64,000 nucleotides of DNA from Chthoniobacterales bacterium (GTDB lineage: Bacteria > Verrucomicrobiota > Verrucomicrobiia > Chthoniobacterales > UBA10450). The first letter of the stretch is position 1; each line of letters opens with the position of its first letter. The notes under the pieces were generated by a model. It ran no database searches and had not been told where the DNA came from. It saw only the letters and a program-made list of their open reading frames with translations. The stretch is taken from assembly GCA_046262815.1 (NCBI GenBank), contig JBHELY010000011.1, positions 1,783-65,782 on the forward strand. The letters run 5' to 3'. A program made the translations under genes and the position numbers. Shown here one piece after another: positions 174 to 57,168 of this stretch.

Positions 174-329
174 TGGGCCACGCCCATCCTTTTGCATCGA
201 CTCGATTCTAGAATGGCGGCCCCTTGCAAACAAACGCAGATCCGTCCCCGGAAAAGCGCGAGAAATGCGGGCTAAGGCTCGTCCTTGCACGAGGCATGCT
301 TAGAAAGACCTAACGACCTCTCCCCGATT

Positions 330-815
330 ATGATTGACCAAAAAGAGTTCGACCGCCTGGCGCCCCTCGCCGCGCAATGGGCGAAAACCCAGGAAAAATA
401 CATTCTTCAGCATGGCGTCCCGCTCACCGCGGACCAAATCGCGGACGCCAGGAAAGCCGGCGTGAAGGACCTCGCCCGCGTCCGTGTCCTCGTCGTGCAC
501 CGAATCCCGCTCCCCGACGACAAAGAGCTGGCGCAAGCCGCGCGCCACGCCCAAATCATCACGGACGCTTCCCGCGGCGTCGCGATTGGCCACGGCATCA
601 TCATCCGCGCGGATAGCTGGCGGGAACGCGAGCTCCTCCTCCATCAATTGGTGCACGTCGCGCAATGCGAGCGGAGTGGCGGCCTGGAAAAATTTGTGAA
701 CGAATACCTGATGGACCGGCGGAGCAGCGCGCGAAATTTCAGTCTCGGCTCCCTCGAGGACGAAGCCCGCGGCCTGGCGCGCGAGTTGTGCGGAGACGCC
801 CAGCTCGCCAACTGA
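330..815 (+). CDS. hypothetical protein with zincin-like H-Q-x-x-H-x-x-Q segment (DUF4157-like, tentative)
   Basis: ORF 285..815 has a TTG at 285; the first ATG at 330 is preferred. LLLHQLVHVAQCE resembles the HExxHxxQ motif with Glu replaced by Gln. Confidence 0.55.
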   Translation: MIDQKEFDRLAPLAAQWAKTQEKYILQHGVPLTADQIADARKAGVKDLARVRVLVVHRIPLPDDKELAQAARHAQIITDASRGVAIGHGIIIRADSWRERELLLHQLVHVAQCERSGGLEKFVNEYLMDRRSSARNFSLGSLEDEARGLARELCGDAQLAN

Positions 816-874
816 TCCGCCCGGTCAGGCTCCGGCGCGGCGATTTATCAGGCGCCGGAAAAGCGCTGCGAAAA

Positions 875-1741
875 TTACAACTGATCGATGATGTAACCGT
901 GGCTGCGCAGTAACGCGACCACGCCGTCTTTGCCACCGAAGTGGGCGGCGCCTGCCACGACGAAATAGACCTGCCCGCTTTTCGCATAACCATCGATCTT
1001 CGGAATCCAGCGATGGTTGCGCTGGCCGAGGAGGCGCTCGCCGAAGGCCGGGAATTCGCGATAAGCGTCGCGCATCATCCCCGCGAGCATGTCGGCATCG
1101 CCGCGCCGCCAGGCGCCGATCAAATCGGCCGCAGCGAGATCGGTCCGGCCGAGATTGATGAAGTGAATCAAGAGCAGCGCTTCGCTTTCGCGCTCGGTCA
1201 GGTCAATAAAAGGCGACATATGTTCCTGGATCGATTCCAGGCTCTCGATCGGCTTGTGAGCTGACGCGGCTTTATTTTGGAGATAGCGCTCCACCCCCAG
1301 ATTGAAATTCTGTTTCGGCGCCGCCTCGAGCATCGCGGCGATCAGCCACGGACGATACGTGTTGAATTTTTGTTCCGGCACCCCGCGGAGCGCGAAGTAA
1401 CGCTTCAAATAGGCGTAGGTCCGCGGGTCGACGTGGTTCTTCAGGCTGTCGCTCTTTCCGTACTGGCCGGCCTTGCTAAGACCTTTCGAGGCGGCCTCCA
1501 TCGATTTCGGTTCGGTCTCGAACACCAGCCGCGACGAAGAATCAAACGCCCGTTGATACGGCGCCGGCAGCGGATAATCGTTGCTCCGCAAGGCATGGAC
1601 CGACCCGGCCAGAAACACCGTGCCGCCACTGGGTGAAGTTGCTTTCCAAACGCACGAAGCTGCATCCGCGACCTGGCAGACGCATCCGGCGATGGTTGCG
1701 CAAACGAAAAGAAGGCGCCGCAGGGGGTTGGTAAAGATCAT
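875..1741 (-). CDS. TraB/GumN family protein, exported
   Basis: 288 aa with a signal peptide. GSVHAL and C-terminal VVAGAAHFGGKDGVVALLRSHGY are typical of TraB/GumN. Confidence 0.8.
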   Translation of the reverse strand: MIFTNPLRRLLFVCATIAGCVCQVADAASCVWKATSPSGGTVFLAGSVHALRSNDYPLPAPYQRAFDSSSRLVFETEPKSMEAASKGLSKAGQYGKSDSLKNHVDPRTYAYLKRYFALRGVPEQKFNTYRPWLIAAMLEAAPKQNFNLGVERYLQNKAASAHKPIESLESIQEHMSPFIDLTERESEALLLIHFINLGRTDLAAADLIGAWRRGDADMLAGMMRDAYREFPAFGERLLGQRNHRWIPKIDGYAKSGQVYFVVAGAAHFGGKDGVVALLRSHGYIIDQL

Positions 1742-1831
1742 CTGTTGCCTTACTCGCGCTCCGGCCTAACGACAAGCGACCAACCGCAAATTCTTGCTCT
1801 CGATCTCCAAATCCTTTTGGGTCTTTCCTTA

Positions 1832-8430: not shown

Positions 8431-8431
8431 A

Positions 8432-11400
8432 TTATTTCGCCGGCGGAGTCGGATTCCGGTTCGGATACGGCGGCGGCCCAGGCGGCAACGAATAACCCTT
8501 CGTCTTCATGTCCTTCTGGATTTCTTCGATCGCGCGATCGAGCTGCTGGTCTTCGCCGTGAAATTCCTTCGACGGATCGTTATCGACGACGATGTCGGGA
8601 TCGACGCCGTGACCTTCAATGACCCATTCCTTGCCGTCCTTCGAAAAGGGAGCGAACTCCGGCCGGAATAACTGGCCGCCGTCCGTGAGCGGAAGCGGAT
8701 TACGAATTCCGACCACGCCGCCCCAGGTCCGTTTGCCTATCAATTTACCAAGTCCCAGTGCCTTGAAGCGATACGGGAAGATATCGCCATCCGACGCCGA
8801 AAACTCGTCACATAACGCGACCATTGGCCCCACGAACGTCAGTGGCGGATTCGTTTGCGGCGTACCGTTACGCGCGATCTCCACCATCACGAGCGCGCGC
8901 CGGAGACGATCGATCACCAGCGGTGAAACGAAGCCGCCGCCGTTGCCGCGCACGTCCACGATCAGACCTTTCTTGCGGATCTGCGGGAAGTATTGCTTGG
9001 TGAATTCGTTTAAGCCCGGCTGTCCCATGTCGGGAATATGAATGTAACCAACCTGGCCGTTGGTCTTCTTGGTAACTTCATCCACGTTCTTCTGGACCCA
9101 GGCGCGATAGTAAAGCGGCGACTCGTCCGAGACGGGAACGACGGTGATGTCGCGCGCGCCATCGTCCGCCGGTTTCGAGTTGACCCGGAGAATGACTTGT
9201 TTGTCGGCGGTGCCGATAAGCGCGTCGTAGATATTGGTCAGGGTGCTAACCGGCGTGCCGTTAACCGCCAGAATGTAATCGCCCGCTTTCACATTCACGC
9301 CGACCGCGGTAAGCGGCGAACGCCCGTGCTTGTCCCAGTTCTCGCCCGGCAGGATCTTCTCAATCTTGTAAGCCTTACTCGCCGGATCGCGCGATAGCTC
9401 CGCGCCAAGTAGTCCTAGCTTGATGCGCGGCGTCTCGGGACGTTCGCCGCCGGCGACGTAAGCATGCCCGTTGTTCAACTCGCCGATTAACTCACCGACG
9501 AGATAGGTAAGATCGTTGCGATGATTCACGAATGGAACCAGCGCGCCATACTTGTCGCGCATCGCTTTCCAGTCCACGCCGTTCATGTTCGGCGCGTAGA
9601 AGAAATCGCGCATATGCCGCCACGATTCGTTGTAGATCTGGGTCCACTCCGCATGGCGATCGAGCTTCATGTCGAGCCCGGAGAGCTTTAGCCGAAAATC
9701 TTTCCCGGCCTTATCGTCCTTGATCTCGATCTTGTCCTTCGGCAGGTCGATCATTGCGTATTCCTTGCCGATCTTTACCAGCATCTTCTTCCCGTCGTAG
9801 GTGATCTCGTAGTTACTTACATCGCCCAGGACGGTTTCCTTGCGGTCGTCAATGCTGTAGGAGCAGAGATGCCAGCGACGGTTGTCCGGGCCTCCATCAT
9901 CGTCGTCATCGCCACGGTCGTCCGCCACGGTGCGGCGCATGTAGAACACGCGATCGTTCACCAGTCGCAGATTCCGGTAGTTAGCAGAAGGAATGTCCAG
10001 CGCGATAAGACGGTCGTGAATGCCGTCCAGGTCCACCTTCACTGTTACTGGCTTCTTGGCACCCGGCTCTTTGTCCTTACCATCTTTGTCGTCCTTCTTG
10101 GTATCTTCGCCGGGTTTCTTATCGGGCTTAGCTTTGTCTTTGTCAGCTTCCTTACCCTTGTCCTTGTCGTCCGGCTTGTCTTTCTCCTTCTCCTTCTTCT
10201 TACCTACTTCATCGCTCCGCGGCCCGAGTGGGTTTTCCGTCTCCTTCGATAACGTCACCAGGTACACCCGCTCCAGGTCGCGATAGATGTTGTTGAAATC
10301 GGTTTGATCGAAGAGGGGCTTGAAATCCCGGCTCGAGGTCATCATGAGATATTTGCCGTCATCGCTGAACGTCGCGCTATCCGCCGAATACCATTCGTCG
10401 GTTACCGGCGTTTCCTTCTTGTTCGCGAGCGAAAAGAGGTGAACGCGGTCGCCGCCGTTCTCTTCCTGCCGCACCCAGGCGATCCAGTTACTGTCCGGCG
10501 ACCAATCATAGCTGCCGATCTCGGCTTCCTTGCTTTGGTCCACCTGCGTGATGGCCTTGCTCGCGACATCGATGTAACGCAACCGCTGCAAGCGATCGCT
10601 CCACATGAGCTTCTTGCTATCAGGCGACCAGGCCGCGCCGTAGTAGTAGGTGTCGGCGTTGCTGGTTAATTGCGTGGGCTCGCCTTTGCCATCCTGCGAA
10701 CGAACGTACAACTCGTTCTCACCCGTCACGTCCGAGTTATAGGCAATCCATTTCCCGTCGGGCGACCAAACCGCATCGCGCTCATGCGCGTTCGAGGTCT
10801 TCGTTAAATTCCGCGGGGTCCCGTCTTTTCCTGGGACCGAATACAAATCGCCGCGAGCGACGACGATCACGCGCTGGCCATCCGGCGCCGAAGTGACGGA
10901 TTCAATGTGCTTCGAGGCATCCACCATCGCCGAGCGACCGGATGCGAAATCTTCCTTGATATCGATCGGCACCACGGCCGATTTCCCGCTCGCCAGATCG
11001 TAGCGCCAGATGTAACCAGCCTGCTCGAACACGACCGCGTCTTTCCCGATCGACGGGAACTTGATGTCGTAATCCTTGAAAGTCGTGAGCTGCTTGGTGT
11101 CCTTGCCGGTGAGATCGGCCGAGAACAAATTCATCCGCCCGTCGCGATCGGAAATGAAATAGATCCGGTTATCCGGGCCCCACATCGGGCAGATGTCCTG
11201 CGACGGATCGTTCGTCAGGTTCGTGGTCTGGCCGGTTTTGAAATCGAACATCCAGACGTCGTCGGCCATGCCGCCGCGATAATGTTTCCAGGTGCGGAAC
11301 TCGCGGAAGACGCGGTTATAAACCATCTTCGAATCGTCCGGCGAAAACGAAGCGAACCCGCCGCGCGGCACCGGCAATTGCTGCGGCAGATCGCCGTCCA

Positions 11401-11884
11401 TGCTCGCGGTGTAAAGCTCGCCGATGAAGGAATTGAACATCCGCATGCGACTTCGGAAAACCACCAGCGGCTTCGTGTTCTCCCAGGTCATCACGATGTT
11501 GTTCGGGCCCATCCGGTCCGAGATGTCGTCGCGGCCGACTGTCGTTGTCGTCGTGATCCGCTTCGGCGCGCCGCCTTCGCCGGGCATGACGTAGACTTCC
11601 GTGTTGCCGTCGTACTGCGAGGTGAACGCGATCTGTTTTCCGTCGGGCGAAAAGTGCGGGAACGAAGTGTAACCCGGACCACTCGTTAGGCGGCGGGCGA
11701 CGCCGCCCTCCTTCGCGACGGTGTAAAGCTCGCCGGCGTAACAGAAGACGATTTGCGAGCCGTTCGTGGTCGGGAAACGGAGAAGGCGCGTGGTGTTTGG
11801 TAAGTTTTGGGCTGAAGCAGGGCGGTCGAGCACGAGCGCGATTACGAGCGCGATTACGAGGCGAAGAAGTGAAGTCGGACGCAT
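8432..11884 (-). CDS. tricorn protease homologue (S41 peptidase with beta-propellers and PDZ)
   Basis: 1150 aa. Signal peptide, TolB-like SPDGK propeller repeats, PDZ and S41 core. Carries a Lys/Asp-rich insert at aa 556-612. Confidence 0.85.
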   Translation of the reverse strand: MRPTSLLRLVIALVIALVLDRPASAQNLPNTTRLLRFPTTNGSQIVFCYAGELYTVAKEGGVARRLTSGPGYTSFPHFSPDGKQIAFTSQYDGNTEVYVMPGEGGAPKRITTTTTVGRDDISDRMGPNNIVMTWENTKPLVVFRSRMRMFNSFIGELYTASMDGDLPQQLPVPRGGFASFSPDDSKMVYNRVFREFRTWKHYRGGMADDVWMFDFKTGQTTNLTNDPSQDICPMWGPDNRIYFISDRDGRMNLFSADLTGKDTKQLTTFKDYDIKFPSIGKDAVVFEQAGYIWRYDLASGKSAVVPIDIKEDFASGRSAMVDASKHIESVTSAPDGQRVIVVARGDLYSVPGKDGTPRNLTKTSNAHERDAVWSPDGKWIAYNSDVTGENELYVRSQDGKGEPTQLTSNADTYYYGAAWSPDSKKLMWSDRLQRLRYIDVASKAITQVDQSKEAEIGSYDWSPDSNWIAWVRQEENGGDRVHLFSLANKKETPVTDEWYSADSATFSDDGKYLMMTSSRDFKPLFDQTDFNNIYRDLERVYLVTLSKETENPLGPRSDEVGKKKEKEKDKPDDKDKGKEADKDKAKPDKKPGEDTKKDDKDGKDKEPGAKKPVTVKVDLDGIHDRLIALDIPSANYRNLRLVNDRVFYMRRTVADDRGDDDDDGGPDNRRWHLCSYSIDDRKETVLGDVSNYEITYDGKKMLVKIGKEYAMIDLPKDKIEIKDDKAGKDFRLKLSGLDMKLDRHAEWTQIYNESWRHMRDFFYAPNMNGVDWKAMRDKYGALVPFVNHRNDLTYLVGELIGELNNGHAYVAGGERPETPRIKLGLLGAELSRDPASKAYKIEKILPGENWDKHGRSPLTAVGVNVKAGDYILAVNGTPVSTLTNIYDALIGTADKQVILRVNSKPADDGARDITVVPVSDESPLYYRAWVQKNVDEVTKKTNGQVGYIHIPDMGQPGLNEFTKQYFPQIRKKGLIVDVRGNGGGFVSPLVIDRLRRALVMVEIARNGTPQTNPPLTFVGPMVALCDEFSASDGDIFPYRFKALGLGKLIGKRTWGGVVGIRNPLPLTDGGQLFRPEFAPFSKDGKEWVIEGHGVDPDIVVDNDPSKEFHGEDQQLDRAIEEIQKDMKTKGYSLPPGPPPYPNRNPTPPAK

Positions 11885-25345: not shown

Positions 25346-25803
25346 CTTCTTCATCTCACGAGATCGAACGCAAATTTCTCGTCCGCAAAATGCCAGCTGA
25401 CCTAACGAGTTATCCGAGCAACGAAATTTCGCAGGGTTATTTGGTGAGCCTGGACGATGGGATGCAGGTGCGGCTGCGAAAAACCGGCGAGCGTTACTCC
25501 CTGACGTTCAAGCGCGGTACGGGAAACGTTCGGGAAGAGCGCGAAGTGGAACTGACCACCGCGCAATTCGATGCACTCTGGCCCGCCACAGCCGGGAAGC
25601 GGCTCGTGAAAACGCGCTATGAGATTCCGCTCGGCGACCGCGTCGTCGAAATCGATGTTTATCATGACCGTCACGAAGGCTTGATCGTAGCCGAAGTGGA
25701 ATTCGACGACGAAGCAGCGGCGAAGAATTTTGAGCCGCCGGATTGGCTGGGCGCCGATGTCACCGGCGATCCGCGCTACAGCAATCAACTCCTCGCGTCC
25801 TGA
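25339..25803 (+). CDS. CYTH-domain protein (triphosphatase/class IV cyclase fold)
   Basis: ORF 25279..25803 trimmed to ATG 25339. N-terminal EIERKFLV signature. Confidence 0.8.
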   Translation: MSPSSSHEIERKFLVRKMPADLTSYPSNEISQGYLVSLDDGMQVRLRKTGERYSLTFKRGTGNVREEREVELTTAQFDALWPATAGKRLVKTRYEIPLGDRVVEIDVYHDRHEGLIVAEVEFDDEAAAKNFEPPDWLGADVTGDPRYSNQLLAS

Positions 25804-32541: not shown

Positions 32542-34260
32542 ATGCGATCCCGCTTTCTTGTTGCCGCGCTCAGCCTCCTTTTGAGTAGCCTTTGCCTCGC
32601 CCAGCAGGCGGATATGCCCGCCGCCGATACGTCGTCGCTCGATTTCAAACAGTTCGGCTTGCTCGCCATCCAGGACGGCGGCCGGCGCAAACCGGTCGAT
32701 ACTTTCGCGCGCGAGACGCTCATCAAGATCACCGGCCGCTCCACTTACGCTTCCGGCGCGCGGACCTGGCAGGCCAGCGATTTTCTCCTCTCGATGCTGC
32801 TCGACACGCATGATTGGAAAACCGAGCCGATGATCCTGGTCTCGCTCGGCGAATTGAAAGAACGGCTCGGATTACCTAACGAACAACGCCGCTTTTCCTT
32901 TACCCAACTGACGACGCTGCCGGAGTTGAACGCGCTCGCCAGCCAGGCCCACGCGCTGCGCAAAGCCGAGAAGCCGCTCAACCGCCTCCAAAACGAAGTG
33001 ATGAGCGTCACCGAGCGACTCGCCCTTTTTGCGAACGTCATGAACGGGACCGCGTTTCTGCTCGTGCCTGCGCCGGAGAAGGCAACCGACGCGTGGCTGG
33101 TCCCGCCGGCCTTCGCGCAATATTACAGTGAGCAGCAGTTCGCGCCCGTGCAGACGCCGTTGCAGACGATGGCGAACGCCTACGTGAAAGGCGACGGCTT
33201 CGCTTTCAGTCGCGCCGCGAACCAGCTACGCGAAAACCTCCGGCAACTGAGCCCGAAGCTTTATCCCGAGGAATCGCAGCTCCGCCTCGAATATTTCTAC
33301 AATCACTGGGACGGTTTCTATCGCGCCGCGTGGTCCTACGGCGTGGCGCTTCTCCTGCTCGGGATCGCTTCGATGCGCGGTAAGGGTGGCTGGATCAAAC
33401 AAGCCGGTCTCGCCATTGCGATCGCAGGGCTGCTCTTTCACGCCAGCGGCATCGTGATGCGTTGCCTGATCGCGGGCCGTCCGCCGGTGACCAACATGTA
33501 TGAGTCCATCATCTGGGTCTCATTCGCGGTCTCGTTCTTCGGCATGATTTTTTTCCTGCGTTATCGAACTCCGGTTTACCTGCTGGCCGCTTTACCGGTC
33601 TCGCTCGTCGCGCTCTTGCTCGTCCATCAGATGCCGATCGCGATGCCGTCGAGCATCGACCCGCTCGTTCCGGTGCTCCGCGATAACTTTTGGCTCACGA
33701 TCCACGTCCTCACCATCACCCTGAGCTACGCCGCGTTCGCGCTCGCGATGGGGTTCGGTCACATCCTTCTGTGGCGTTACGCGCGTAATCCGGTCGCGGC
33801 CCGCGCGGACCAGCCGATGCATTTCTGGTTGTATCGCGTTCTTCAGCTCGGCGTAATCCTGCTCGCTGCCGGCACAATTCTCGGCGGTGTCTGGGCGAAT
33901 TATTCCTGGGGCCGGTTCTGGGGTTGGGACCCGAAAGAAACCTGGGCGCTCATCGCGTTGCTTTGTTACATCCTCACTTTGCACGGACGCCTCGCCGGCT
34001 GGTGGACCCAGTTCGGATTGGTTGTCGCCAGCGTCGTTTGTTTCCTTGCTGTCCTGATGGCCTGGTACGGCGTGAACTTCGTTCTTGGAAAAGGGCTGCA
34101 TAGCTACGGTTTCGGCATCGGCGGCGAGACCTACGTCGTGGGCGGGGTCATTGCCGATCTTCTCTTCGTCGGATTTGCGATCTGGCGTTATCGCCGGGCG
34201 AAATCAGCGCGCTTACCGACCACTCCCACGCCGGCCGCTGCCGAACGGATTGCTGCGTAA
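32542..34260 (+). CDS. ccsA: cytochrome c biogenesis protein CcsA-type (with long N-terminal extension)
   Basis: Trimmed to ATG 32542. WGRFWGWDPKETWALI is the Trp-rich haem-handling motif. Confidence 0.8.
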   Translation: MRSRFLVAALSLLLSSLCLAQQADMPAADTSSLDFKQFGLLAIQDGGRRKPVDTFARETLIKITGRSTYASGARTWQASDFLLSMLLDTHDWKTEPMILVSLGELKERLGLPNEQRRFSFTQLTTLPELNALASQAHALRKAEKPLNRLQNEVMSVTERLALFANVMNGTAFLLVPAPEKATDAWLVPPAFAQYYSEQQFAPVQTPLQTMANAYVKGDGFAFSRAANQLRENLRQLSPKLYPEESQLRLEYFYNHWDGFYRAAWSYGVALLLLGIASMRGKGGWIKQAGLAIAIAGLLFHASGIVMRCLIAGRPPVTNMYESIIWVSFAVSFFGMIFFLRYRTPVYLLAALPVSLVALLLVHQMPIAMPSSIDPLVPVLRDNFWLTIHVLTITLSYAAFALAMGFGHILLWRYARNPVAARADQPMHFWLYRVLQLGVILLAAGTILGGVWANYSWGRFWGWDPKETWALIALLCYILTLHGRLAGWWTQFGLVVASVVCFLAVLMAWYGVNFVLGKGLHSYGFGIGGETYVVGGVIADLLFVGFAIWRYRRAKSARLPTTPTPAAAERIAA

Positions 34261-36666: not shown

Positions 36667-37095
36667 ATGGCGGACATGTATCCTGGAAAATGTTTTTGTG
36701 GCGCAGTTGAAATCGAAGTCACCGGCATGCCCGAAGGCATGGGCTATTGCCATTGCGCTGCGTGCCGCTCCTACATCGGCGCGCCCATCAACGCCTTCAC
36801 GCTCTGGAAACCGGAGAACGTGAAGATCACCAAGGGCGAAGACTCGTTAGGCAGCTTCCAGTCGTCCGAAATGAGCGTCCGTCGTTTCTGCACGAAATGC
36901 GGCGGCAACGTTATGACCGAGCATCCGGGCCTCGGTTTGGTGGATGTTTTCGCCGGTGTCATTCCTACGATGCCGTTCAAGGCCGGCGCCCACCTCAACT
37001 ACGAGGAAACCGTCCTGCCAATGAAGGACGGCCTCCCGAAGTTGCGCGATTTCCCGGCCGAGATCGGCGGTTCCGGCGCCACGATGCCGGAATGA
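36667..37095 (+). CDS. GFA (glutathione-dependent formaldehyde-activating/CENP-V) family protein
   Basis: ORF 36043..37095 trimmed to ATG 36667. Cys pattern CFCGAV...CHCAACR...CTKCG. Confidence 0.8.
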   Translation: MADMYPGKCFCGAVEIEVTGMPEGMGYCHCAACRSYIGAPINAFTLWKPENVKITKGEDSLGSFQSSEMSVRRFCTKCGGNVMTEHPGLGLVDVFAGVIPTMPFKAGAHLNYEETVLPMKDGLPKLRDFPAEIGGSGATMPE

Positions 37096-37105
37096 TGCGG
37101 CCGGC

Positions 37106-37384
37106 CTAACGACCCGCCAAAAAATAGAGAAGCGTCAGTAGGACAAGAACGATTGCGGTGATCCACCAGACCGGGCTGATCCCGGCCGGCTTCGGCGAGC
37201 GGCCGAATTCTCTCCGCGTGAATTCATCGTAATCGAATTCCTCAGGCAGATCGACGCCGTCATAGCTTTCCGCGTCCTCGCGCCAACCGGAATTATGGTC
37301 CGCGCCGCATTCCGGGCAGGCTAGGGCGCCGCGCGGCACATCCTCGCCACAAACCGGACAGATCACGGGAGCTTGCCGTTTCAT
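37106..37384 (-). CDS. zinc-ribbon membrane protein
   Basis: 92 aa. CPVCG...CPECG and a C-terminal TM helix. Confidence 0.6.
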   Translation of the reverse strand: MKRQAPVICPVCGEDVPRGALACPECGADHNSGWREDAESYDGVDLPEEFDYDEFTRREFGRSPKPAGISPVWWITAIVLVLLTLLYFLAGR

Positions 37385-37869: not shown

Positions 37870-37876
37870 AGACTTA

Positions 37877-40419: not shown

Positions 40420-40426
40420 CGAAAGA

Positions 40427-40562: not shown

Positions 40563-40606
40563 GCCTAACGACTAGACGCGCACTCACTTAAAAGCCGTCG
40601 TTAGGC
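40563..40606. terminator. inverted pair GCCTAACGAC ... GTCGTTAGGC at the 3' end of the POT gene
   Basis: 10-bp perfect arms with a 24-nt spacer. The right arm contains the POT stop codon. No U-tract. Confidence 0.45.
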
Positions 40607-42001
40607 CTTCGCTCCGACCTCGAGCTGATGGCTGGCGACGAATTTGAAGATCACGAAGCAGAGGCCTGAGCCGAGAGCGAAGGCGCCGTGGAGGAGCCAG
40701 AAGTTGGTGGTGGGCCATTTCTCGAGGAAGCCGCCAACCCAGCCGACCATGGTATTGGCGGCGAAGAAGGCCAGATAATACAGGCCGATGATGGTGGCGT
40801 TGATCGCTTTCGGCGCGTACTTCGCGAATAACGCGAGACTGATCGGCAACAGATGCGCGAATGCGATGCTGTTGATGAAGTGGAACGCGACCGGCCAGAA
40901 GAGTCCGATTTTCTGCCCGGCGGTCTGCGTGGCCGCGGCCATGAAAAGACAGAGGGTGCCGGCAATCGAAAAAACGGAGCCGATGATGAGCTTCGTGACT
41001 TCGTCGGGCTCGCGCCGACGCTTCCCGTACCAACGATAGAAAATCGCGACAAGCGCTAGGAAGGTGACGCTGACGATGGCGTCGAGAGTAACGAGCCAGG
41101 TGGTCGGCAGTTTTTTGCCCATGAAAACGAGGTCGAACTGCTGGTCGCCCCAAACCAGGTAGGCGTTAAAGATCTGGTTGTTCGGCACGATCGCGACGGC
41201 AAGCACGGGGATAAGAAGGACGAGCGCGATGATGGCGCGCCAGTCGCGCCCGGTGAGCTTCGCGCGCGGCGCACTCGTGACGACGGCGAGGCTCGGGTCG
41301 TTGTCGCTTGCGCGAAGATATTTTTGTCCCCGCAAATAAATGCCGATGGCGAGAAGCATGCCGACGCCGGCAGCGGCGAAGCCGTAATGCCATCCGACTT
41401 TTTCGCCTAACGAGCCGACAATAAGCGGTGAGATGATGACGCCGGCGTTGATGCCGAGATAGAAAATCTGGAAGGCGTCGGCGCGGCGGAGGTCTTCGGG
41501 TTTGTAAAGCGAGCCGACCTGGCTGGCGATGTTGCCCTTGAACATGCCGCATCCGAGTACGAGGCAAAGGAGCGCAAATAGAAACGCAGTCTCGAATGCC
41601 ATCAGGAAATGGCCGGCGGCCATGGTGAACGCGCCGAGCAGAACGGTGCGGCGCCGGCCGAGAACGCGATCGGCAAGGAAACCGCCGAAGATTGGTGTGA
41701 GATAAACGGCGGCGGTGTACGTGCCGAAGATGGCGGAAGCTAGCGGTTGCCCACCGAGTCCGCTATAAAATGGCAGTTGGCGGAACGCGTCGAAGATCGC
41801 GACCCGCTCGATGCGTCCGGGCAGGAGAAGATACTTCACCATGTAAAGGACAAGCAGCGATTGCATGCCGTAGTAGGAAAAGCGTTCCCACGCTTCGGTG
41901 AACGCGAGATACCAGAGCCCGCGCGGGTGTCCGAGGAAACCGGGGGTGTGTTCTTCGCCGGTCAACGGCGCGGCGTCATCAGGCTCGGCGGTGGCGGTCA
42001 T
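40601..42001 (-). CDS. POT/PTR2 family proton-dependent oligopeptide transporter
   Basis: 466 aa. GHPRGLWYLAFTEAWERFSYYGMQSLLVLYM is the PTR2 signature. Confidence 0.9.
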   Translation of the reverse strand: MTATAEPDDAAPLTGEEHTPGFLGHPRGLWYLAFTEAWERFSYYGMQSLLVLYMVKYLLLPGRIERVAIFDAFRQLPFYSGLGGQPLASAIFGTYTAAVYLTPIFGGFLADRVLGRRRTVLLGAFTMAAGHFLMAFETAFLFALLCLVLGCGMFKGNIASQVGSLYKPEDLRRADAFQIFYLGINAGVIISPLIVGSLGEKVGWHYGFAAAGVGMLLAIGIYLRGQKYLRASDNDPSLAVVTSAPRAKLTGRDWRAIIALVLLIPVLAVAIVPNNQIFNAYLVWGDQQFDLVFMGKKLPTTWLVTLDAIVSVTFLALVAIFYRWYGKRRREPDEVTKLIIGSVFSIAGTLCLFMAAATQTAGQKIGLFWPVAFHFINSIAFAHLLPISLALFAKYAPKAINATIIGLYYLAFFAANTMVGWVGGFLEKWPTTNFWLLHGAFALGSGLCFVIFKFVASHQLEVGAKA

Positions 42002-42580: not shown

Positions 42581-43195
42581 TCAAAGATGTTTGGCGATGC
42601 GGCGCTTCTTTTTTACGTCGGTCTCGCCGAAGAGGAATTTGATTGCATGATCAACGCTATGATACGCCAGGACGATTGGGTTATTTTCCTTCTGCACCGT
42701 CCGCTGGCGAGGGTGACCTAACGACCGACGTCTGGCTGCAATGTCATTCTTTAAGGCTCCCTCGATATCCGAACCCGCGCTGGCAAGTGCGATATCACCG
42801 TGCGCGATCAGGGCGCGTTCGAACTGAGTGGCCCGCTCATCCATGGCCCAACGGGAAGTCACAGACCGATCGAGGGACTCGCCATTTGCGCCGCGGACGT
42901 CGCCGTGATTGTCGATCACGAAGGCGGGCGTAACGCCGAGAGGTCTTCTGGCAATGCCGAGGGATATGCAGATGTCCAAATCAATAAAGCCAGTGCGCGC
43001 GAATCCCTTTCTTTCCTGATAGCGGCCGACAGCGGCGGTAAGCGGAGGGCTGATTTCACCCGTGATTTCGCCATAAAACAGATGGCGCTTGCGAAGTTCT
43101 TCCTGGACTCTGCGAACCTGGTCATTAGCAAAAACGTCGGAGAAGAGGGAGAGTTCAAATCCCAGAACCAGTAGGCAAGTTGGAAACCTACCCAT
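42581..43195 (-). CDS. peptidoglycan-binding (PG_binding_1-like) domain protein
   Basis: 204 aa. VRRVQEELRKRHLFYGEITGEISPPLTAAVGRYQERKGFARTG. Confidence 0.65.
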   Translation of the reverse strand: MGRFPTCLLVLGFELSLFSDVFANDQVRRVQEELRKRHLFYGEITGEISPPLTAAVGRYQERKGFARTGFIDLDICISLGIARRPLGVTPAFVIDNHGDVRGANGESLDRSVTSRWAMDERATQFERALIAHGDIALASAGSDIEGALKNDIAARRRSLGHPRQRTVQKENNPIVLAYHSVDHAIKFLFGETDVKKKRRIAKHL

Positions 43196-43241: not shown

Positions 43242-43282
43242 GCCTAACGACAGCTTCCAAGATATAACCAAACTCGTTAGGC
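43242..43282. repeat. inverted pair GCCTAACGA ... TCGTTAGGC
   Basis: 9-bp perfect arms with a 23-nt AT-rich spacer, in a 355-nt intergenic region. Confidence 0.5.
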
Positions 43283-47992: not shown

Positions 47993-48691
47993 TCACCACG
48001 GGATCACTTTCCGGTCTTTCACGAATTTGCCGGTGAGATCGTGCGGCGCGTCCGTGGCGAGCCAGACAATCGTGGCGGCGCCTTCAGCGACTGAACGATT
48101 CGCGTTTTCGCCGCCCATGTCGGTTCGAACCCAGCCCGGACAAACGCTGTTCACGGCGAACTTCGGAAGCGCCGCGGCGAGTTGAACAGTGACGCCGTTG
48201 AGCGCCGTTTTCGAAACGCAATAGCCGGGCGCCCAACCGTCGGCGCCGCCATCGAGCTGTCCGCCGCCGCTCGAGACGTTCACGATTCGCGGTTCGCGGC
48301 TTTTCTTGAGTAACGGCCCAAACGCCTGGGCGACCAGCCACGGACCCAGCGTATTTGTGCGCAGCGTCCTCTCAAAAATTTCTGGGGTGATCGAAAGCGC
48401 ATTCTCGTCGTCATCGAGAAGAATCCCGGCATTGTTGACGAGCACGTCGAGATGATCGCTCTGTCGCGCCACTTCTTCGGCCGCTCGCCGGATGCTCTCA
48501 AGATTAGCGATATCGATCTCGACAAAAACAACGTCACCGTCCTTGCTCAGTTTTTCGACGGCGGCGCGACCGGCTGTGACGTTTCGAGCGCCGAGAAAAA
48601 CACGAAAGCCCATTCGGGCCAATTCTCTCGAGACCTCAAATCCGATTCCTTTGTTCGCACCGGTAACCAGTGCGGTCCTTTGATTCCTCAT
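47993..48691 (-). CDS. SDR-family oxidoreductase
   Basis: 232 aa. TGANKGIG and NNAG motifs. Confidence 0.85.
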   Translation of the reverse strand: MRNQRTALVTGANKGIGFEVSRELARMGFRVFLGARNVTAGRAAVEKLSKDGDVVFVEIDIANLESIRRAAEEVARQSDHLDVLVNNAGILLDDDENALSITPEIFERTLRTNTLGPWLVAQAFGPLLKKSREPRIVNVSSGGGQLDGGADGWAPGYCVSKTALNGVTVQLAAALPKFAVNSVCPGWVRTDMGGENANRSVAEGAATIVWLATDAPHDLTGKFVKDRKVIPW

Positions 48692-50709
48692 GGCGCGACC
48701 GGTTTATGCGGCGTGATCCACTTCGTGTACCAATCGAGGTAGCGTTTGTAGCGGTCGATGATGTAACTCGGCTTGCGCAGTCCGTGATTTTGCCCGGGAT
48801 AAATGACGAGCTCGGTCGGCACGCTCTGGCTCTGCAACGCCTCATACATTTGTTCGCTGTTCAGCAGCGGCACGTTGAAATCGGCTTCGCCGCACAGAAA
48901 CAGCGTCGGTGTTTTGATCTTGTCCGCGTGAAGAAACGGATAGGAAATCCGCATCCAGGTCTCGGAATTTTTCCAGGGAACGCCGAGCTCGTTTTCATAA
49001 TCGGAGACGTATTGGTCGGTGCCGTAACCGGCCAGGACGTTTGAGATCGACGCCCCGCTCGTGGCCGCTTTGAAACGCGTCGTCGTCGCAATGAGATAAT
49101 TCGTGGAAATGCCGCCGTAACTCCAACCGCCGACACCGAGCCGGTCCGGATCGGCCAGGCCGCGAGCGACGGCATCATCGACCGCCGCCAGATCGTCCTC
49201 GACATCGCGATGGCCCCAATCGGCATAAATGCCCATGGCGAATTTTTCGCCGCGACCGGTTGAGCCGCGCGGATTCGGCATGATGACGGTGTAGCCGTTC
49301 GCCGCGAAGAGCTGCGCTTCAAAACTGAACTCGGAGGCGTACTGCGATTGCGGTCCGCCATGGGGACGAAGCAACGCCGGCGTTTTCGTTCCCGCGGCGG
49401 AATCGAGCGGATTCACGATGAAGCCGTGAATCTCAGTACCGTCGGCGCTCTTGAATTTCGTTTCCTCCGTCCGCGCGATCCGGAGGTCTTTCATGAATGC
49501 CTCCGATTGCTTCGTAAGATCGCGAAGTTTGTCCTTCTCGACCGCGAAGATTTCGAACGGTCGATCTGGTGTGCTGGCCCGCACGATGACTTTTCCATCG
49601 TGGCTAACATCATAGGCTGTCACTTTGCGGCGGCCGCTGGTGACGGGCTGGGGCGTGCCGCCATCTACCGCTACGCGCACCAGATTTTCGGCGCCATCGT
49701 CTTCCGTTACTGCGAAGATCGACTTACCGTCGGGCGCCCAATGTGGCTGCACGACATTGCGATCTAATTTCTCCGTCAGGACTTTCGCTGCGCCGCCAGC
49801 GGCCGGAATAATCGCGAGGGTGTTTACGGCGTATTCGATCTTCTTCGGATCGCCGCCGTGAATGTACGCGATCCATTTCCCGTCCGGGCTCCAGGCTGGT
49901 GCGCTCGACCACGGCGGAAACGCGTCTGCCTCGGGCGATGTCGTGAGTTGCCGATCTTTTGCGCCCGCTTGCGCGCCGATGATGTAGACATCCCAGTTTT
50001 CGTGGCGATCGGGATCGTCTCCGCGCTTGGTCGCAAATGCGATCTCGTTCCCGTTCGGCGACCACGACGGCAGCATGTCATCGTGCCGGCCAGACGTAAG
50101 CGGTTCGATCTTACGACTCGTTAGGTCAAGCAATTGCAGGTGCAAATGGCGATCGGTCAGATAACCGTCGATGTCCTTCTTGAACCAAAAACGGTCGATC
50201 ACGAGCGGCGGCACCGTTTTTTTCTCCTTTTCCTTTTTCTCCGGCTCCCGCGGATCGGGATCGAGGACGACGAGCGCGATCCGTTTCGAATCCGGCGCCC
50301 ACGCGAAATCGTCGATGCCTGCTTTTGCGTCGGTCAGCTTTTCGGCCTCGCCGCCGCCGATCGGAAGGAGCCAAAGCTGATCGTTCTCGTTGTCGTCCTC
50401 GCGGCCGGAAAGGAATGCGATCCATTTCCCGTCCGGACTCCAACGCGGATGTCTCGCGCCCTTGTTGCCGAAAGTGAGCGCGCGATTTTCCGAGCCGTCC
50501 CACTTCGCGAGCCAGAGATTGCCGGGACGCTTGTCCTTCTCCATGTCGGCGACCTTGATCACGTACGCGATCCAGTTGCCATCCGGCGAAATATTCGGTT
50601 CATCCACCTCGCGCAATTGGGCGAAGTCTTCCGGCTTCAAGATTCGACCCGGTTCCGCCGCCGACGCAGTCACGGCAGCGAAGGCAACAATCAGCCCGAA
50701 AAGTTTCAT
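48688..50709 (-). CDS. S9 family peptidase (propeller plus alpha/beta hydrolase)
   Basis: 673 aa with a signal peptide. SPDG repeats and the GWSYGG nucleophile elbow. Confidence 0.85.
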   Translation of the reverse strand: MKLFGLIVAFAAVTASAAEPGRILKPEDFAQLREVDEPNISPDGNWIAYVIKVADMEKDKRPGNLWLAKWDGSENRALTFGNKGARHPRWSPDGKWIAFLSGREDDNENDQLWLLPIGGGEAEKLTDAKAGIDDFAWAPDSKRIALVVLDPDPREPEKKEKEKKTVPPLVIDRFWFKKDIDGYLTDRHLHLQLLDLTSRKIEPLTSGRHDDMLPSWSPNGNEIAFATKRGDDPDRHENWDVYIIGAQAGAKDRQLTTSPEADAFPPWSSAPAWSPDGKWIAYIHGGDPKKIEYAVNTLAIIPAAGGAAKVLTEKLDRNVVQPHWAPDGKSIFAVTEDDGAENLVRVAVDGGTPQPVTSGRRKVTAYDVSHDGKVIVRASTPDRPFEIFAVEKDKLRDLTKQSEAFMKDLRIARTEETKFKSADGTEIHGFIVNPLDSAAGTKTPALLRPHGGPQSQYASEFSFEAQLFAANGYTVIMPNPRGSTGRGEKFAMGIYADWGHRDVEDDLAAVDDAVARGLADPDRLGVGGWSYGGISTNYLIATTTRFKAATSGASISNVLAGYGTDQYVSDYENELGVPWKNSETWMRISYPFLHADKIKTPTLFLCGEADFNVPLLNSEQMYEALQSQSVPTELVIYPGQNHGLRKPSYIIDRYKRYLDWYTKWITPHKPVAP

Positions 50710-52864: not shown

Positions 52865-53338
52865 CTACTTCTCTTCGCTCTTCTTCGACTTCTTCTCGGG
52901 CTTCGCTTCGTCGGCCGCCGCGGGCTTTGCGCCTTTGCGTTTCTTGCCTTTTTCCTCTGTGACCGGCTCGTCGATAACGATGGGCGCATCCACCCACTCG
53001 AGAAACGCCACCGGCGCCGCGTCACTCTTGCGAATACCGAGACGGATGATGCGCGTGTAACCGCCGTTGCGATCCGCCGACCGCGGCGCGATATCGTCGA
53101 ACAGTTTCTTTACCGCGTTCTTCTGCCGAAGAACGGCCAGCGCCGTGCGGCGCGCGTGGATCGAACCTTTTTTGCCCAGGGTCACCATCTTTTCCGCGAG
53201 CGGACGAACAGCCTTCGCCTTCGCCAACGTGGTCTTGATCCGCTGATGCTCGATCAAGCTGCAAACCTGATTGGCCAGCAGCGCTTTCCGATGCTCAGCC
53301 GTCCGGCCGAGCTTCACCGTCTTCTTTTGATGTCGCAT
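52865..53338 (-). CDS. rplQ: 50S ribosomal protein L17 with Lys/Glu-rich C-terminal tail
   Basis: 157 aa. MRHQKKTVKLGRTAEHRKALLANQ...GGYTRI. Confidence 0.95.
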   Translation of the reverse strand: MRHQKKTVKLGRTAEHRKALLANQVCSLIEHQRIKTTLAKAKAVRPLAEKMVTLGKKGSIHARRTALAVLRQKNAVKKLFDDIAPRSADRNGGYTRIIRLGIRKSDAAPVAFLEWVDAPIVIDEPVTEEKGKKRKGAKPAAADEAKPEKKSKKSEEK

Positions 53339-53359
53339 GGGATTGTGCCTAACGAGTGG

Positions 53360-54403
53360 TTATTCGCCGTTGCTGCCCGAGCCGTTCATGCTCGCACCGT
53401 CGGCGCTCGCGGCCGGCATATCGACCAGGCCTGCATCGAACTTCATGCCGAGACCGAGGCCGAGCTGCTGGAGCTTGTCCTTGATTTCGTTCAGCGATTT
53501 CTTGCCGAAGTTGCGATACTTCAGCATCTCCGCTTCGCTCTTCTGGGCCAACTGGCCGACCGTGGTGATGTTCGCGTTGTTGAGGCAATTCGCTGCGCGC
53601 ACGCTGAGCTCGATCTCGTTCACGCTCATGTTGAGAAGCTTCTTCAGCTTCATGTTTTCCTCGCTCACGCCCGCCGGTGTTTCGTCGAACTCGATCACGT
53701 CTTCGTTGAAGTTCACGAAGACATCGAGGTGATGGCGCAAAATCGCGGACGCCTGGAGCAGCGCGTCGTCCGGGGTGAGCCGGCCGTCGGTCCAGACATC
53801 GAGGATGAGCTTGTCGTAATCGGTCCGCTGACCGACGCGGGTGTTTTCCACGGCGTATTTCACGCGGGTCACCGGCGAAAAAATGGAATCGATCGGGATC
53901 AGGCCGATCGGCTGATCAGCCCGCTTGTTTTCATCGCCGGTGGCGAACCCACGGCCGACGCGCACTTCGAGCTCGGCGTCGAACTTGTGCTTTTTGTCCA
54001 TCGTGCAGATGAGCTGATCGGGATTCAGAATCTCGTAGCCCTGGGCGAGCTGGATATCGCCGGCGGTGACTTCGCCTTCCTTGTTGATGGAAAGCGAAAG
54101 CTTGCGCGGCTCGTGCTCAGTCGCCTTGAATTTGACCCGCTTCAGGTTGAGAACGATGTCGGTCACGTCCTCGACTACGCCGGGCAGGGTGGCGAACTCA
54201 TGCTGCGCCCCGGTGATTTTTATCGCGGTGATGGCTGCGCCTTCGAGCGACGAAAGAAGTACTCGACGAAGCGAATTGCCGACGGTGTGGCCGTAACCGG
54301 CCTCGAATGGTTCCGCGACAAAGCGGGCGTAGGTTTCAGTGGCGCCGTGCTCGTCCTTGACGAGGGTCTTCGGCATTTCAAAACGACCGTAATGAACTGG
54401 CAT
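53360..54403 (-). CDS. rpoA: DNA-directed RNA polymerase alpha subunit
   Basis: 347 aa. GYGHTVGNSLRRVLLSS... and the C-terminal domain LSVRAANCLNNANI. Confidence 0.97.
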   Translation of the reverse strand: MPVHYGRFEMPKTLVKDEHGATETYARFVAEPFEAGYGHTVGNSLRRVLLSSLEGAAITAIKITGAQHEFATLPGVVEDVTDIVLNLKRVKFKATEHEPRKLSLSINKEGEVTAGDIQLAQGYEILNPDQLICTMDKKHKFDAELEVRVGRGFATGDENKRADQPIGLIPIDSIFSPVTRVKYAVENTRVGQRTDYDKLILDVWTDGRLTPDDALLQASAILRHHLDVFVNFNEDVIEFDETPAGVSEENMKLKKLLNMSVNEIELSVRAANCLNNANITTVGQLAQKSEAEMLKYRNFGKKSLNEIKDKLQQLGLGLGMKFDAGLVDMPAASADGASMNGSGSNGE

Positions 54404-55055: not shown

Positions 55056-55820
55056 CTACCAGCTGCCGCTGGATCCTCCTCCTCCGAAACTGCCGCCGCC
55101 GCCGCTGAAACCGCTAAAGCCGCCGCCAGATGAGGACGAAGATGACCAACCGCTGCCGCTTCCCCAGCCGCTGCTGATGAACGGCCCGCCCAAACCGGTA
55201 TAACCGTATCCGCCTCGGCGACGCCCGAGTCGGATGATCATCAACACTATGATTAGCATGATGATGAACCCGAGCGGCCCGCAACCGCTCGATGCCGGCC
55301 CGCGTTTTTCCTGGACGGTTTCGCCGGTTCCTTTGTATTCGCCGCGGATCGCCTTGAGAATCAGGTCAATCCCTTCCTCTAGGCCCCCCGCATAATCGCC
55401 ATTCCGAAAATGCGGATTTATGTGACGGCTGCGAATGTCGAACGCCGTCACGTCTGGCAGCGCGCCCTCGAGCCCATAGCCGACCTGGATCGAAATCTTG
55501 TGGTCCTGAATGAAAACCAGCATCACTACGCCATTCCGTTGTCCCTTCTGACCAACACCCCACGATTCCGCGACCCGCTGCGCGTAGTCTTCGATTGACG
55601 AGTCGCTTTCCATCTTCGGATACACGGCCACGACGATCTGGTTCGAAGTCTCCCGCTCGAACTGCGCGAGCTTTTCGTTGAGAGCCAGCGCCTTTTCTTT
55701 TGGAACGACGTTCGCGTAATCGTTGAAATACGCCGTCGGCTTGGGCGGAATCTTTTCCGCGGCGCTGACACTAACAGCACCAACCACGAGCAGCGCAAAA
55801 GCAGCGACAGCGCGAATCAC
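55056..55820 (-). CDS. TPM-domain protein with TM helix and Gly/Ser-rich tail
   Basis: 254 aa. FNDYANV...SNQIVVAVYP, with a GGGFSGFSGGGGSFGGGG tail. Confidence 0.8.
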   Translation of the reverse strand: MIRAVAAFALLVVGAVSVSAAEKIPPKPTAYFNDYANVVPKEKALALNEKLAQFERETSNQIVVAVYPKMESDSSIEDYAQRVAESWGVGQKGQRNGVVMLVFIQDHKISIQVGYGLEGALPDVTAFDIRSRHINPHFRNGDYAGGLEEGIDLILKAIRGEYKGTGETVQEKRGPASSGCGPLGFIIMLIIVLMIIRLGRRRGGYGYTGLGGPFISSGWGSGSGWSSSSSSGGGFSGFSGGGGSFGGGGSSGSW

Positions 55821-55821
55821 G

Positions 55822-56472
55822 CTAGGGAGTCGCGGCGGGTGATGTCGCTGGCGCCGGAGTCGTCGCCGGCTTGTTGAAATCGAATTTCACCTCCGGCGCC
55901 TTCTCCGCTCCGGCTGCGGCGGTGAAGAACGGTCGCGGTTTGAACCCAAACATCTTGTTCAACATGTTGGTCGGGAACCGTTCCAGCGCGGTATTGTATT
56001 CCTGCACCGCGCTGTTGAAATTATTTCGCTCCACCGAAATCCGGTTCTCGGTCCCTTCGAGCTGCGCCTGCAAATTCTGGAACGCTTCCGTGGCTTTGAG
56101 CTGCGGATAATTTTCGGTGACGACCAGCAGGCGCGACAACGCGGTGCTCAGTTGCCCCTGCGCTTGCTGGAATCTCTCCAGCTCGGCCGCATCAGTCGGC
56201 GCTTTGGTCGGATCGAGTTTCACCTGACCCACGCTCGCCCGCGCATTCGTCACTTCAGTGAGCGTCGATTTCTCGAAGTTGGCCGCGCCGGCCACCGTGC
56301 TGACCAGGTTCGGAATGAGATCAGCACGTCGTTGGTAGACCGATTGCACGTCGGCCCACTTCTTGTTCACGTTCTGCTCGAGCGTGACGAGCCGGTTGTA
56401 GGTGCCGCAGCCCGTCAGGCTGAAGAGCGAAGCCAGCGCGAGGATTTTGCCGAGTCCGAGAAATCTTTTCAT
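55822..56472 (-). CDS. lemA: LemA family protein
   Basis: 216 aa. WADVQSVYQRRADLIPNLV...ENYPQLKA. Confidence 0.9.
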   Translation of the reverse strand: MKRFLGLGKILALASLFSLTGCGTYNRLVTLEQNVNKKWADVQSVYQRRADLIPNLVSTVAGAANFEKSTLTEVTNARASVGQVKLDPTKAPTDAAELERFQQAQGQLSTALSRLLVVTENYPQLKATEAFQNLQAQLEGTENRISVERNNFNSAVQEYNTALERFPTNMLNKMFGFKPRPFFTAAAGAEKAPEVKFDFNKPATTPAPATSPAATP

Positions 56473-56523
56473 AAGCCAGATGCGCGATCGCGCGGGAGAA
56501 TCGTCGTTAAACTGGGTGGCAAG

Positions 56524-57168
56524 TCAATCCTGCGCAGCGGGTTCGGCCGGCGCGGACTCGGGTTCAACCGGCGCGCCGCTTTCTTTTTTCGGTGCAACCG
56601 GCAGATAACGCGTTCGCAGTTCCTCTGCGTTCGGCAATTCATCGAGATTGCGCAAGCCGAAGTGTTCCAGGAAAAACTCGGTGGTCTCGTAGATCAGCGG
56701 ACGACCTGGAACTTCAGCCCGGCCCGCTATCTTCACCAAACCGCGCTCCATCAGATTTTGGAGAACTCCGTCCACCGCGACTCCGCGCACCGCTTCGATG
56801 TCCGCGCGCGTAATCGGTTGCCGATACGCAACGATCGCCAGCGTTTCGAGCGATGGCGGGGTCAGGCGCGCCGGTTTCACCGCCGGAAAAAGTTGCCGGA
56901 CCCACGACGCGTAGGCCGGATCGCTGACCAACTGCCAGCCTTCCGATTTCTCGGCGAGTTGGAACGCGCGATCTTGCTGCACGTACTCGATCTTCAATTG
57001 CTCGAGCGCGGCCGCGATTTGGGCTTCCGTCACTTTCGCGAACTCGTTAGGTCCCGCAATAGCGGGATCGTCGCCGCCGGCGCTTTTGATCGCCGCGGAA
57101 AGCTCGCGTGCCGTGAACGGCTTTTGCGCCGCAAACAGAAGCGCTTCGATTACCTGGGCGAGACTCAT
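56524..57168 (-). CDS. scpB: segregation and condensation protein B
   Basis: 214 aa. VIEALLFAAQKPFTARELS...TLAIVAYRQPITRADIE. Confidence 0.85.
   Translation of the reverse strand: MSLAQVIEALLFAAQKPFTARELSAAIKSAGGDDPAIAGPNEFAKVTEAQIAAALEQLKIEYVQQDRAFQLAEKSEGWQLVSDPAYASWVRQLFPAVKPARLTPPSLETLAIVAYRQPITRADIEAVRGVAVDGVLQNLMERGLVKIAGRAEVPGRPLIYETTEFFLEHFGLRNLDELPNAEELRTRYLPVAPKKESGAPVEPESAPAEPAAQD

Follow-up and report, generated by a model that had tools for sequence, protein, structure and literature searches.

Soil Chthoniobacterales of one family-level clade share a self-DNA word that is spread over the whole genome, GCCTAACGA, the 9-nt form of a core octamer CCTAACGA (reverse complement TCGTTAGG). 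We studied it in a 64-kb stretch of a contig from the metagenome-assembled genome of a Chthoniobacterales bacterium (JBHELY010000011.1), referred to as the window for the whole of its length, and in the genomes of related bacteria. In the source bacterium and its relatives, the word was over-represented 20 to 60 times relative to chance. Its distributional signature matches that of the DNA uptake sequence (DUS) of the Neisseriaceae and of the uptake signal sequence (USS) of the Pasteurellaceae, and an uptake signal is the reading that this match favours. Whether GCCTAACGA acts as a signal of this type, spread by molecular drive, is in our judgement a finely balanced question.

An exact search of the window confirmed the 16 copies of the octamer reported in a first-pass annotation of this DNA, ten on the forward strand and six on the reverse strand, all at the positions given there. 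The order-3 Markov expectation for the octamer was 0.77 copies, and 100 dinucleotide-preserving shuffles of the window yielded 0.83 copies on average and at most 5, none of them reaching 16. The octamer ranked first among the over-represented 8-mers of the window. All 16 occurrences of CCTAACG were followed by an adenine, and 16 of the 18 occurrences of CCTAAC were located within the word. Alignment of the window copies showed no likeness beyond the word except for a guanine or an adenine directly before it and a guanine or a cytosine directly after it. Flank-extended forms had also been counted in the first-pass annotation, and one of them, CCTAACGAC, is present seven times in the window rather than six.

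We then compared the regions around the NtrC-type regulator gene of the window from 80 species-representative genomes; these regulator-anchored loci leave the first 48 kb of the window uncovered. The enrichment of the word extended to related genomes, a point that the first-pass annotation had proposed to check: the 38 related sequences of the clade set (687 kb) contained 268 copies, compared with 12.0 expected. The outgroup set of 43 sister-lineage loci (693 kb) was near chance, with 6 copies compared with 3.2 expected, and four of these six were located inside a longer repeat of a single locus, L056. Strong enrichment was observed in every locus group whose regulator was at least 80% identical to that of the window, and the word was essentially absent from the regulator loci of Chthoniobacter and of more distant Verrucomicrobia. 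A neighbour-joining tree of the regulator showed that all of the word-bearing loci belong to one monophyletic clade with 0 to 18 copies per 10 kb. Within it, the density was 4.7 to 18 copies per 10 kb in a dense subclade, 0 to 8.9 in a mixed second subclade (L015-L017, L019, L021 and L030), 0 to 3.7 in the subclade of the window and 0 to 1.9 in a further subclade. The lineage of the window itself has a moderate density of about 2.5 copies per 10 kb, and the highest density, found in some species, was one copy per 550 bp. Single loci contained 39 copies in 21 kb (L029), 30 (L035), 23 (L034), 19 (L019) and 18 (L031).

Three genomic regions independent of one another showed the enrichment, as did random metagenomic contigs. 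The lysA loci of two relatives with long contigs contained 15 copies each in 21 kb, of which 11 and 13 were coding and 4 and 2 were intergenic, respectively, according to the gene calls of the database. The loci anchored on the POT gene in the window's own subclade contained 0 to 1.4 copies per 10 kb. Metagenomes were scanned for two 9-mers within 30 nt, and the matches listed comprised chance matches, tandem arrays and at least about 16 contigs with dispersed copies on both strands. Among the matches listed, the contigs of this last kind had a GC content of 57-62% and carried their copies at unrelated genes; L147 contained 12 copies in 5.5 kb and L193 contained 10 in 13 kb, the latter contig being assigned to the same order as the window by its LysA protein. 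Another contig, L159 (4380 bp, the whole contig), is a near-perfect self-palindrome and probably a fold-back assembly artefact, so that its 16 copies stand for about 8 real ones. Viral contigs scanned for paired 9-mers yielded 34 matches, none of which had dispersed copies on both strands, and there was little in each locus beyond the matched pair or a short run of copies on the same strand.

Calculated over 274 copies, each core position of the octamer carried 2 bits of information and position -1 carried 1.0 bit, a guanine being present there in 79% of the copies; this defines the unit as GCCTAACGA. All the remaining flanking positions carried at most 0.15 bit, with a weak T-rich stretch at positions -4 to -2, and this near-zero flank information indicates a free-standing word. 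The flank preference was R-CCTAACGA-GT in the window, L001-L013 and L019 and TTYG-CCTAACGA-N in L029, L034 and L035 of the dense group; the lineages also differed at position -1. In the subclade of the window, perfect copies far outnumbered one-off variants, which argues that the word is maintained and is not a decaying relic. The second-ranked 8-mers of the related loci were tandem heptamer arrays or longer repeats, and no alternative dispersed word was found among them.

Of the 268 copies of the clade set, 189 were coding and 79 were intergenic (about 70% and 30%, respectively), whereas 85% of the sequence is coding; the intergenic enrichment is about twofold (29% of the copies in 15% of the sequence, P = 7e-10). 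All four stop-free frames were occupied, by 56, 51, 52 and 30 copies. In the dense genomes, the tripeptide Pro-Asn-Asp/Glu was spelled with CCTAACGA in 40 of 49 cases when 3.1 were expected from codon usage, and Ser-Leu-Gly was spelled with TCGTTAGG in 37 of 44 cases when 0.5 were expected. Eligible Leu-Thr and Val-Arg dipeptides were spelled with the word in 35 of 63 and 27 of 84 cases, compared with 0.6 and 0.5 expected, respectively. The peptides compatible with the word were themselves more common in the dense genomes, which suggests an accommodation of amino acids. At the orthologous site of scpB, the CCT-AAC-GAR spelling was retained in about 20 species, and the word supplied the stop codon of 15 of the 576 predicted genes. 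The first-pass annotation had taken the use of rare Leu codons as an argument for selection on the DNA word itself. CTA and TTA do represent only 1.9% and 3.4% of the Leu codons of the window, and CCT represents 5.8% of its Pro codons. Selection or drive on the DNA word is strongly supported by the near-saturated synonymous spelling, by the conservation of synonymous sites and by the use of four frames in both orientations; a signal at the level of RNA or protein was rejected on this last ground.

Comparison of orthologous sites showed that those without the word differed from it by one to four substitutions (for example GCCTGACGAG or GCCGGACGAG) and never by an insertion or a deletion of a unit, and many word positions were common to several species. 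This turnover by substitution only excludes a mobile element and fits an accumulation by point mutation. Depletion of the word in acquired DNA rests on two cases. The largest word-free gap of the densest locus (L029, 4400-10000) contained no copy when 13.9 were expected (P about 1e-6). It corresponds to a resistance-nodulation-division (RND) efflux operon, with AcrB-like and HlyD-like products, located between a sensor kinase and the NtrC-type regulator. This operon has the GC content of its host, is absent from the other 37 clade sequences and looks like a recent acquisition. The second case is a lineage-specific insert of L034 (3533-7645), with no copy when 5.5 were expected, which encodes a protein with a Peptidase_S74 domain and a Kelch-repeat protein; a search for a viral relative of its tail-fibre-like protein found none.

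These distributional and evolutionary properties are observed directly in the sequences compared. The first-pass annotation had likened the word to the uptake sequences of Neisseria and the Pasteurellaceae, including their inverted pairs at gene ends. The likeness holds for every statistical property examined, namely a core without flank homology, strand symmetry, twofold intergenic enrichment, restriction to a clade with dialects, turnover by point substitution and absence from lineage-specific insertions, but it does not extend to the inverted pairs. The DUS of the Neisseriaceae has the core GCCGTCTGAA and a 12-mer form, ATGCCGTCTGAA, and its receptor is the minor pilin ComP. Like the DUS, the word is short and asymmetric and is found on both strands, within and between genes, in hundreds to thousands of copies; the density in the dense species, the lineage dialects and the depletion in acquired DNA are also shared. 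The DUS of Neisseria occurs at one site per 400-1100 bp, has dialects and is strongly depleted in genomic islands (PMC7371117), and its dependence on a receptor is described in PMC3868556. Unlike the DUS, the word has an unrelated sequence and belongs to another phylum, and its dialects are located in the flanks of a constant core of 8-9 nt, whereas those of the DUS vary within the 12-mer. The USS of the Pasteurellaceae has a 9-nt core, AAGTGCGGT or ACAAGCGGT, whose flanks hold little information; about two in three of its copies are coding, their frames are accommodated, the proteome is affected, and one-off variants are tolerated at some positions. A 9-nt core, weak flanks and a similar coding fraction (70%, compared with roughly two thirds) are found here also, as are accommodated reading frames, effects on the proteome and a tolerance of one-off variants at some positions, but the sequence and the phylum are unrelated to those of the USS, and the AT-rich segments located downstream in Haemophilus are replaced by the weak T-rich stretch upstream. 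The receptor of the USS is still not established according to PMC12616744.

The principle is apparently the same as in the known uptake sequences, with an unrelated sequence, a new phylum and habitat and, presumably, a different receptor. Biased uptake, a receptor and competence genes are what an uptake signal would require in addition to the properties observed. A component of the uptake machinery would prefer double-stranded DNA bearing the word; in the known systems, the word-binding component is a minor type IV pilin. Fragments bearing the word would be imported and recombined more often than word-free fragments, and point mutations creating or improving copies would hence spread through the population by molecular drive. 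Copies would build up where they are tolerated, that is between genes, across stop codons and in the four stop-free frames; those located in genes would be paid for in rare codons and in some amino-acid changes, and newly acquired foreign DNA would begin without the word. It is quite possible, if somewhat doubtful, that the word is a working uptake signal independent of the DUS and the USS in an abundant uncultured soil lineage of Verrucomicrobia. The members of this lineage would then be naturally competent and would prefer the DNA of their own clade, and dialects and density would form partial barriers to gene flow. Since the word is unrelated to the DUS and the USS, the receptor would have a new DNA-binding specificity. 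In full-text searches of the literature, no paper mentioned this word in a relevant setting, and no link between uptake sequences and Verrucomicrobia, Chthoniobacterales, Spartobacteria or Udaeobacter emerged.

A scan of all the fetched sequences, which are loci and not whole genomes, found no ComEC-like open reading frame (ORF); a pilin-motif scan of the fetched sequences found only generic pilin-like ORFs, in L028 and L037. None of comEC, comEA, dprA, the pilus genes or a candidate receptor lies within these loci. Several observations fit an uptake signal less well. Close relatives differ about 20-fold in the density of the word, and one subclade, that of L018, L020, L024 and L025, is almost free of copies, so that the bias would have to have been lost or weakened repeatedly. 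Eight copies are located within 6.4 kb of the window (P = 6e-5, uncorrected), and this clustering is not explained by the uptake model. Inverted pairs forming terminators, a common trait of the DUS in Neisseria, are not a feature of the word. Any slow genome-wide process would leave foreign DNA without the word, and this absence thus does not separate an uptake signal from its rivals.

The first of these rivals, which we consider unlikely, is that an abundant chromosomal protein, such as a nucleoid organiser or a protein marking self DNA for defence or repair, binds the word, which is kept by selection at each site. Strand symmetry, clade specificity and the lack of copies in foreign inserts would fit a site of this kind, and so would the local clusters, in which copies stand close together as direct or inverted pairs. 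Such pairs were more frequent than expected by chance, with two in the window compared with 0.2 expected and eight gaps of less than 50 bp in L029 compared with 3.3 expected. The gaps between copies were roughly random (coefficient of variation 0.8-1.1). The 13 direct and 10 inverted pairs found in the clade at 120 nt or less were located in coding and non-coding DNA, and their spacings varied (0, 1, 3, 7, 8, 10, 12, 13 and 23-26 nt, among others) without a fixed or helical register, which speaks against such a site. The near-saturation of the compatible peptides resembles an indiscriminate drive and not a function acting site by site, and an essential function would hardly be expected to show a 20-fold range of density with almost no copies in one subclade. 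A nucleoid or self-marking protein that binds asymmetric 9-bp sites in their thousands is not known to us.

Slightly less probable still is a process like that behind the cyanobacterial HIP1 (highly iterated palindrome 1), GCGATCGC, which is linked to methyltransferase sites and whose cause is debated. The word would here be the site of a methyltransferase or of a repair enzyme, inflated by biased repair or by selection for modification sites, with no role in uptake. HIP1 is likewise a hugely over-represented octamer, in coding as well as non-coding DNA of a single lineage, and the absence of the word from recent insertions fits such a process equally well. The most common single-mismatch variant in the dense loci was GCCTAACAA (22 copies, compared with 1.3 expected), a CpG-to-CpA change that could reflect a methylated cytosine on the bottom strand, but the product of the CpG transition on the top strand, GCCTAATGA, was not enriched (2 copies, compared with 1.0 expected). 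The variant GCCTGACGA reached 14 copies, compared with 3.3 expected, and changes at position 1 were enriched too; variants at T4, at C7 and most of those at A6 did not exceed expectation, and the excess at the remaining core positions was modest at most. Very-short-patch repair touches one position, whereas all nine are driven here, and the TTA and CTA Leu codons of the word need two changes from the common codons. Unlike HIP1, the word is asymmetric and is not a palindrome, and a contiguous asymmetric methyltransferase site of 9 bp would be unusual. No methyltransferase was tied to the word in any locus, no search having been aimed at such a link.

A polar signal for recombination or segregation, either Chi-like (RecBCD/AddAB) or similar to the FtsK orienting polar sequences (KOPS), is very improbable. 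Chi, which is GCTGGTGG in E. coli, is also an over-represented octamer of the core genome, the word reaches in the window a density near that of Chi in E. coli, with one copy per 4 kb, and the coding copies show a slight excess on the sense strand (107:82). Chi and KOPS are, however, strongly co-oriented with replication, whereas the word is strand-neutral. We judged polarity on syntenic loci of about 20 kb oriented by the same gene, for which the direction of replication is presumably shared. The overall strand balance was 141:127 (P = 0.43), that of single loci was 22:17, 19:11, 15:8, 8:10, 8:8 and 9:10, and that of the two lysA loci was 8:7 in both. A Chi-like skew of 3:1 and a KOPS-like skew above 85% are excluded for the regions examined, which bears out the doubt expressed in the first-pass annotation about a role similar to that of Chi. 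The 20-fold variation in density among close relatives and a synonymous saturation far above anything we know of for Chi point in the same direction.

A dispersed mobile repeat, whether a miniature inverted-repeat transposable element, a repetitive extragenic palindrome (REP) or an Ssn-type hairpin, or a by-product of composition, codon usage or protein motifs can be set aside almost entirely: some related loci do hold longer repeat families, and the word lies inside a repeat of about 24 nt in L056, but the 274 copies have near-zero flank information, their orthologous presence or absence is due to substitutions and never to insertion, and the word is used in four frames and on both strands at 13- to 74-fold above the expectation from codon usage. 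The NTS/SRM elements are palindromic hairpins about 30 bp long that occur in hundreds of copies, cluster around genes, modulate natural transformation in Neisseria and are cut by Ssn nucleases (PMC11893778). The word has no hairpin and no conserved flanks, and its identity with an Ssn/NTS hairpin repeat was rejected, these being a different kind of element.

The gene names given to the window in the first-pass annotation (tricorn, CYTH, S9 peptidase, GFA, POT, PG_binding, Cytochrom_C_asm and ScpB) were all recovered with Pfam, and its three readings of the coding copies (Leu-Thr-Ser, Ser-Leu-Gly and Pro-Asn-Glu) are correct. Leu-Thr-Ser is encoded by the copies located at 11683..11690 (-), which is read in sense as CTA-ACG-AGT in the tricorn protease gene (8432-11884, -) and is preceded by G and followed by GT; at 25401..25408 (+), in the gene of a CYTH-domain protein (25279-25803, +), preceded by A and followed by GT; and at 50118..50125 (-), in an S9 peptidase gene (48688-50709, -), this last copy being conserved in L004, L006 and L009. 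Ser-Leu-Gly is encoded by the copies at 36844..36851 (-), as TCG-TTA-GGC in the GFA gene (36676-37095, +); at 41406..41413 (+), inside the POT gene (40601-42001, -) and conserved in the relative L235; and at 42717..42724 (+), in the PG_binding gene (42581-43195, -). Pro-Asn-Glu is encoded by the copy at 32875..32882 (+), flanked by A on both sides and read as CCT-AAC-GAA in a cytochrome c assembly gene (32509-34260, +), and by that at 57044..57051 (-), read as CCT-AAC-GAG in scpB (56524-57168, -).

The assignment of the other eight copies to intergenic DNA is reasonable, and this proportion is significant when compared with the approximately 15% of the window that is intergenic (P = 0.001). 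The copy at 309..316 (+), preceded by A and followed by C, is located in a probable 5' leader, 14 nt before an in-frame ATG at position 330. The copy at 1765..1772 (+), preceded by G and followed by C, lies in the divergent spacer between a gene at 875-1741 (-) and a TPR gene whose likely ATG, also in frame, is at position 1832. Two copies had been said to supply the stop codon of a gene. One of them, at 40598..40605 (-), does contain the TAA stop of the POT gene. The other, at 37105..37112 (+), preceded by G and followed by C, is located between convergent genes, 10 nt past the stop of the GFA gene, which ends at position 37095; it supplies no stop to this gene, and its CTA is the TAG stop of a zinc-ribbon ORF (37106-37384, -). 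The copy at 53348..53355 (+) lies in the 21-nt spacer (53339-53359) between rpoA (53360-54403, -) and an ORF at 52865-53338 (-) that is L17-like, judging from its synteny with L235. It occupies most of this spacer, at the expected ribosome-binding site of the L17-like gene, and is conserved in at least six relatives.

The four remaining intergenic arms, including that with the POT stop, form two inverted pairs. The pair at 40563-40606 has its left arm at 40564..40571 (+), downstream of a tRNA gene (40428-40515, +), and its right arm at 40598..40605 (-). The pair at 43242-43282, with 9-nt arms and a 23-nt spacer, is composed of copies at 43243..43250 (+) and 43274..43281 (-) and is located in a spacer that lies upstream of both the PG_binding gene and a gene at 43552-43917 (+). 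Both pairs can be folded into stem-loops, with 9-10 bp in the stem, about 23 nt in the loop and no T tract, and their fold energy is only marginally better than that of shuffled sequence. The pair that follows POT is absent from relatives, whose synteny differs. The pairs described in the first-pass annotation as standing at gene ends are thus present, but that at 43243/43274 is upstream of two divergent genes, and the arrangement is neither general nor conserved. Intrinsic terminators were rejected because of the long loops, the missing T tract and the lack of conservation. The inverted pairs of the window are local accumulations and not a conserved structural device.

The tRNA gene located directly before the first inverted pair has about 20 nt inserted in its anticodon loop. 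ARAGORN identified it as a Pro(AGG) tRNA of 90 nt, and the Rfam tRNA model gave 32.6 bits, only when the region was searched alone. The neighbouring region at 37857-40420, of about 2.5 kb, is poor in genes, has a low coding score and contains ORFs without a Pfam or PHROG match. There is no copy of the word at 37.9-40.4 kb, although copies flank this region; its GC content is 49-54% in the part at 38.5-40.0 kb, and relatives carry different genes at this position. The region, next to the tRNA gene, is possibly what is left of a piece of foreign DNA.

Several other repeats were observed in the relatives. Tandem heptamer arrays are located in L035 (17303-17401), L002 (9867-9965 and 14210-14329), L008 (19777-20635), L055 (7109-7252) and L037 (19507-19683). 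Their unit varies by species (CCCCAAA, AGCTCCA, AACGTCC or AAATCCG, and an octamer in L037), two arrays are often found in opposite orientation, and those that were spot-checked look non-coding. These arrays of Chthoniobacterales resemble the STRR (short tandemly repeated repetitive) heptamer repeats of cyanobacteria. In the outgroup locus L056 (119-1596), four copies of the word are located on one strand inside the repeat GCCTAACGAGACAAAGATCAGCGA, at 340-630 bp from each other; this is a different family that happens to hold the word. L005 (1578-4498) contains a palindromic REP-like dispersed unit around GCAGGCTGCCAGCCTGC, and L015 (6964-16914) contains a longer dispersed repeat, CCTGGTTTCCTAATTCGTCTTCTCC. 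In L001, the closest relative of the window, AATCCGGA, which includes the palindrome TCCGGA, was present at 10 sites (for example 142, 7013 and 20794), compared with 1.0 expected; it is dispersed on both strands and is not among the top words of the window.

Whatever its function, the word is a marker of the clade in metagenomes, and the gaps in its distribution flag recently acquired DNA, such as the RND efflux operon of L029. If it is not an uptake signal, these genomes are subject to an unexplained genome-wide drive of HIP1-like strength, which would be at least as interesting. As far as we know, only two families of proteobacteria, both of them host-associated, have an established sequence-specific uptake of DNA. 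If GCCTAACGA is an uptake signal, it would be a third and unrelated case, in free-living soil Verrucomicrobia, and self-preferring transformation would be a trait that evolves repeatedly. It would also be the first evidence that a dominant, uncultured lineage of soil bacteria is naturally competent, and the word, added to donor DNA, would provide a handle for the transformation of these organisms.

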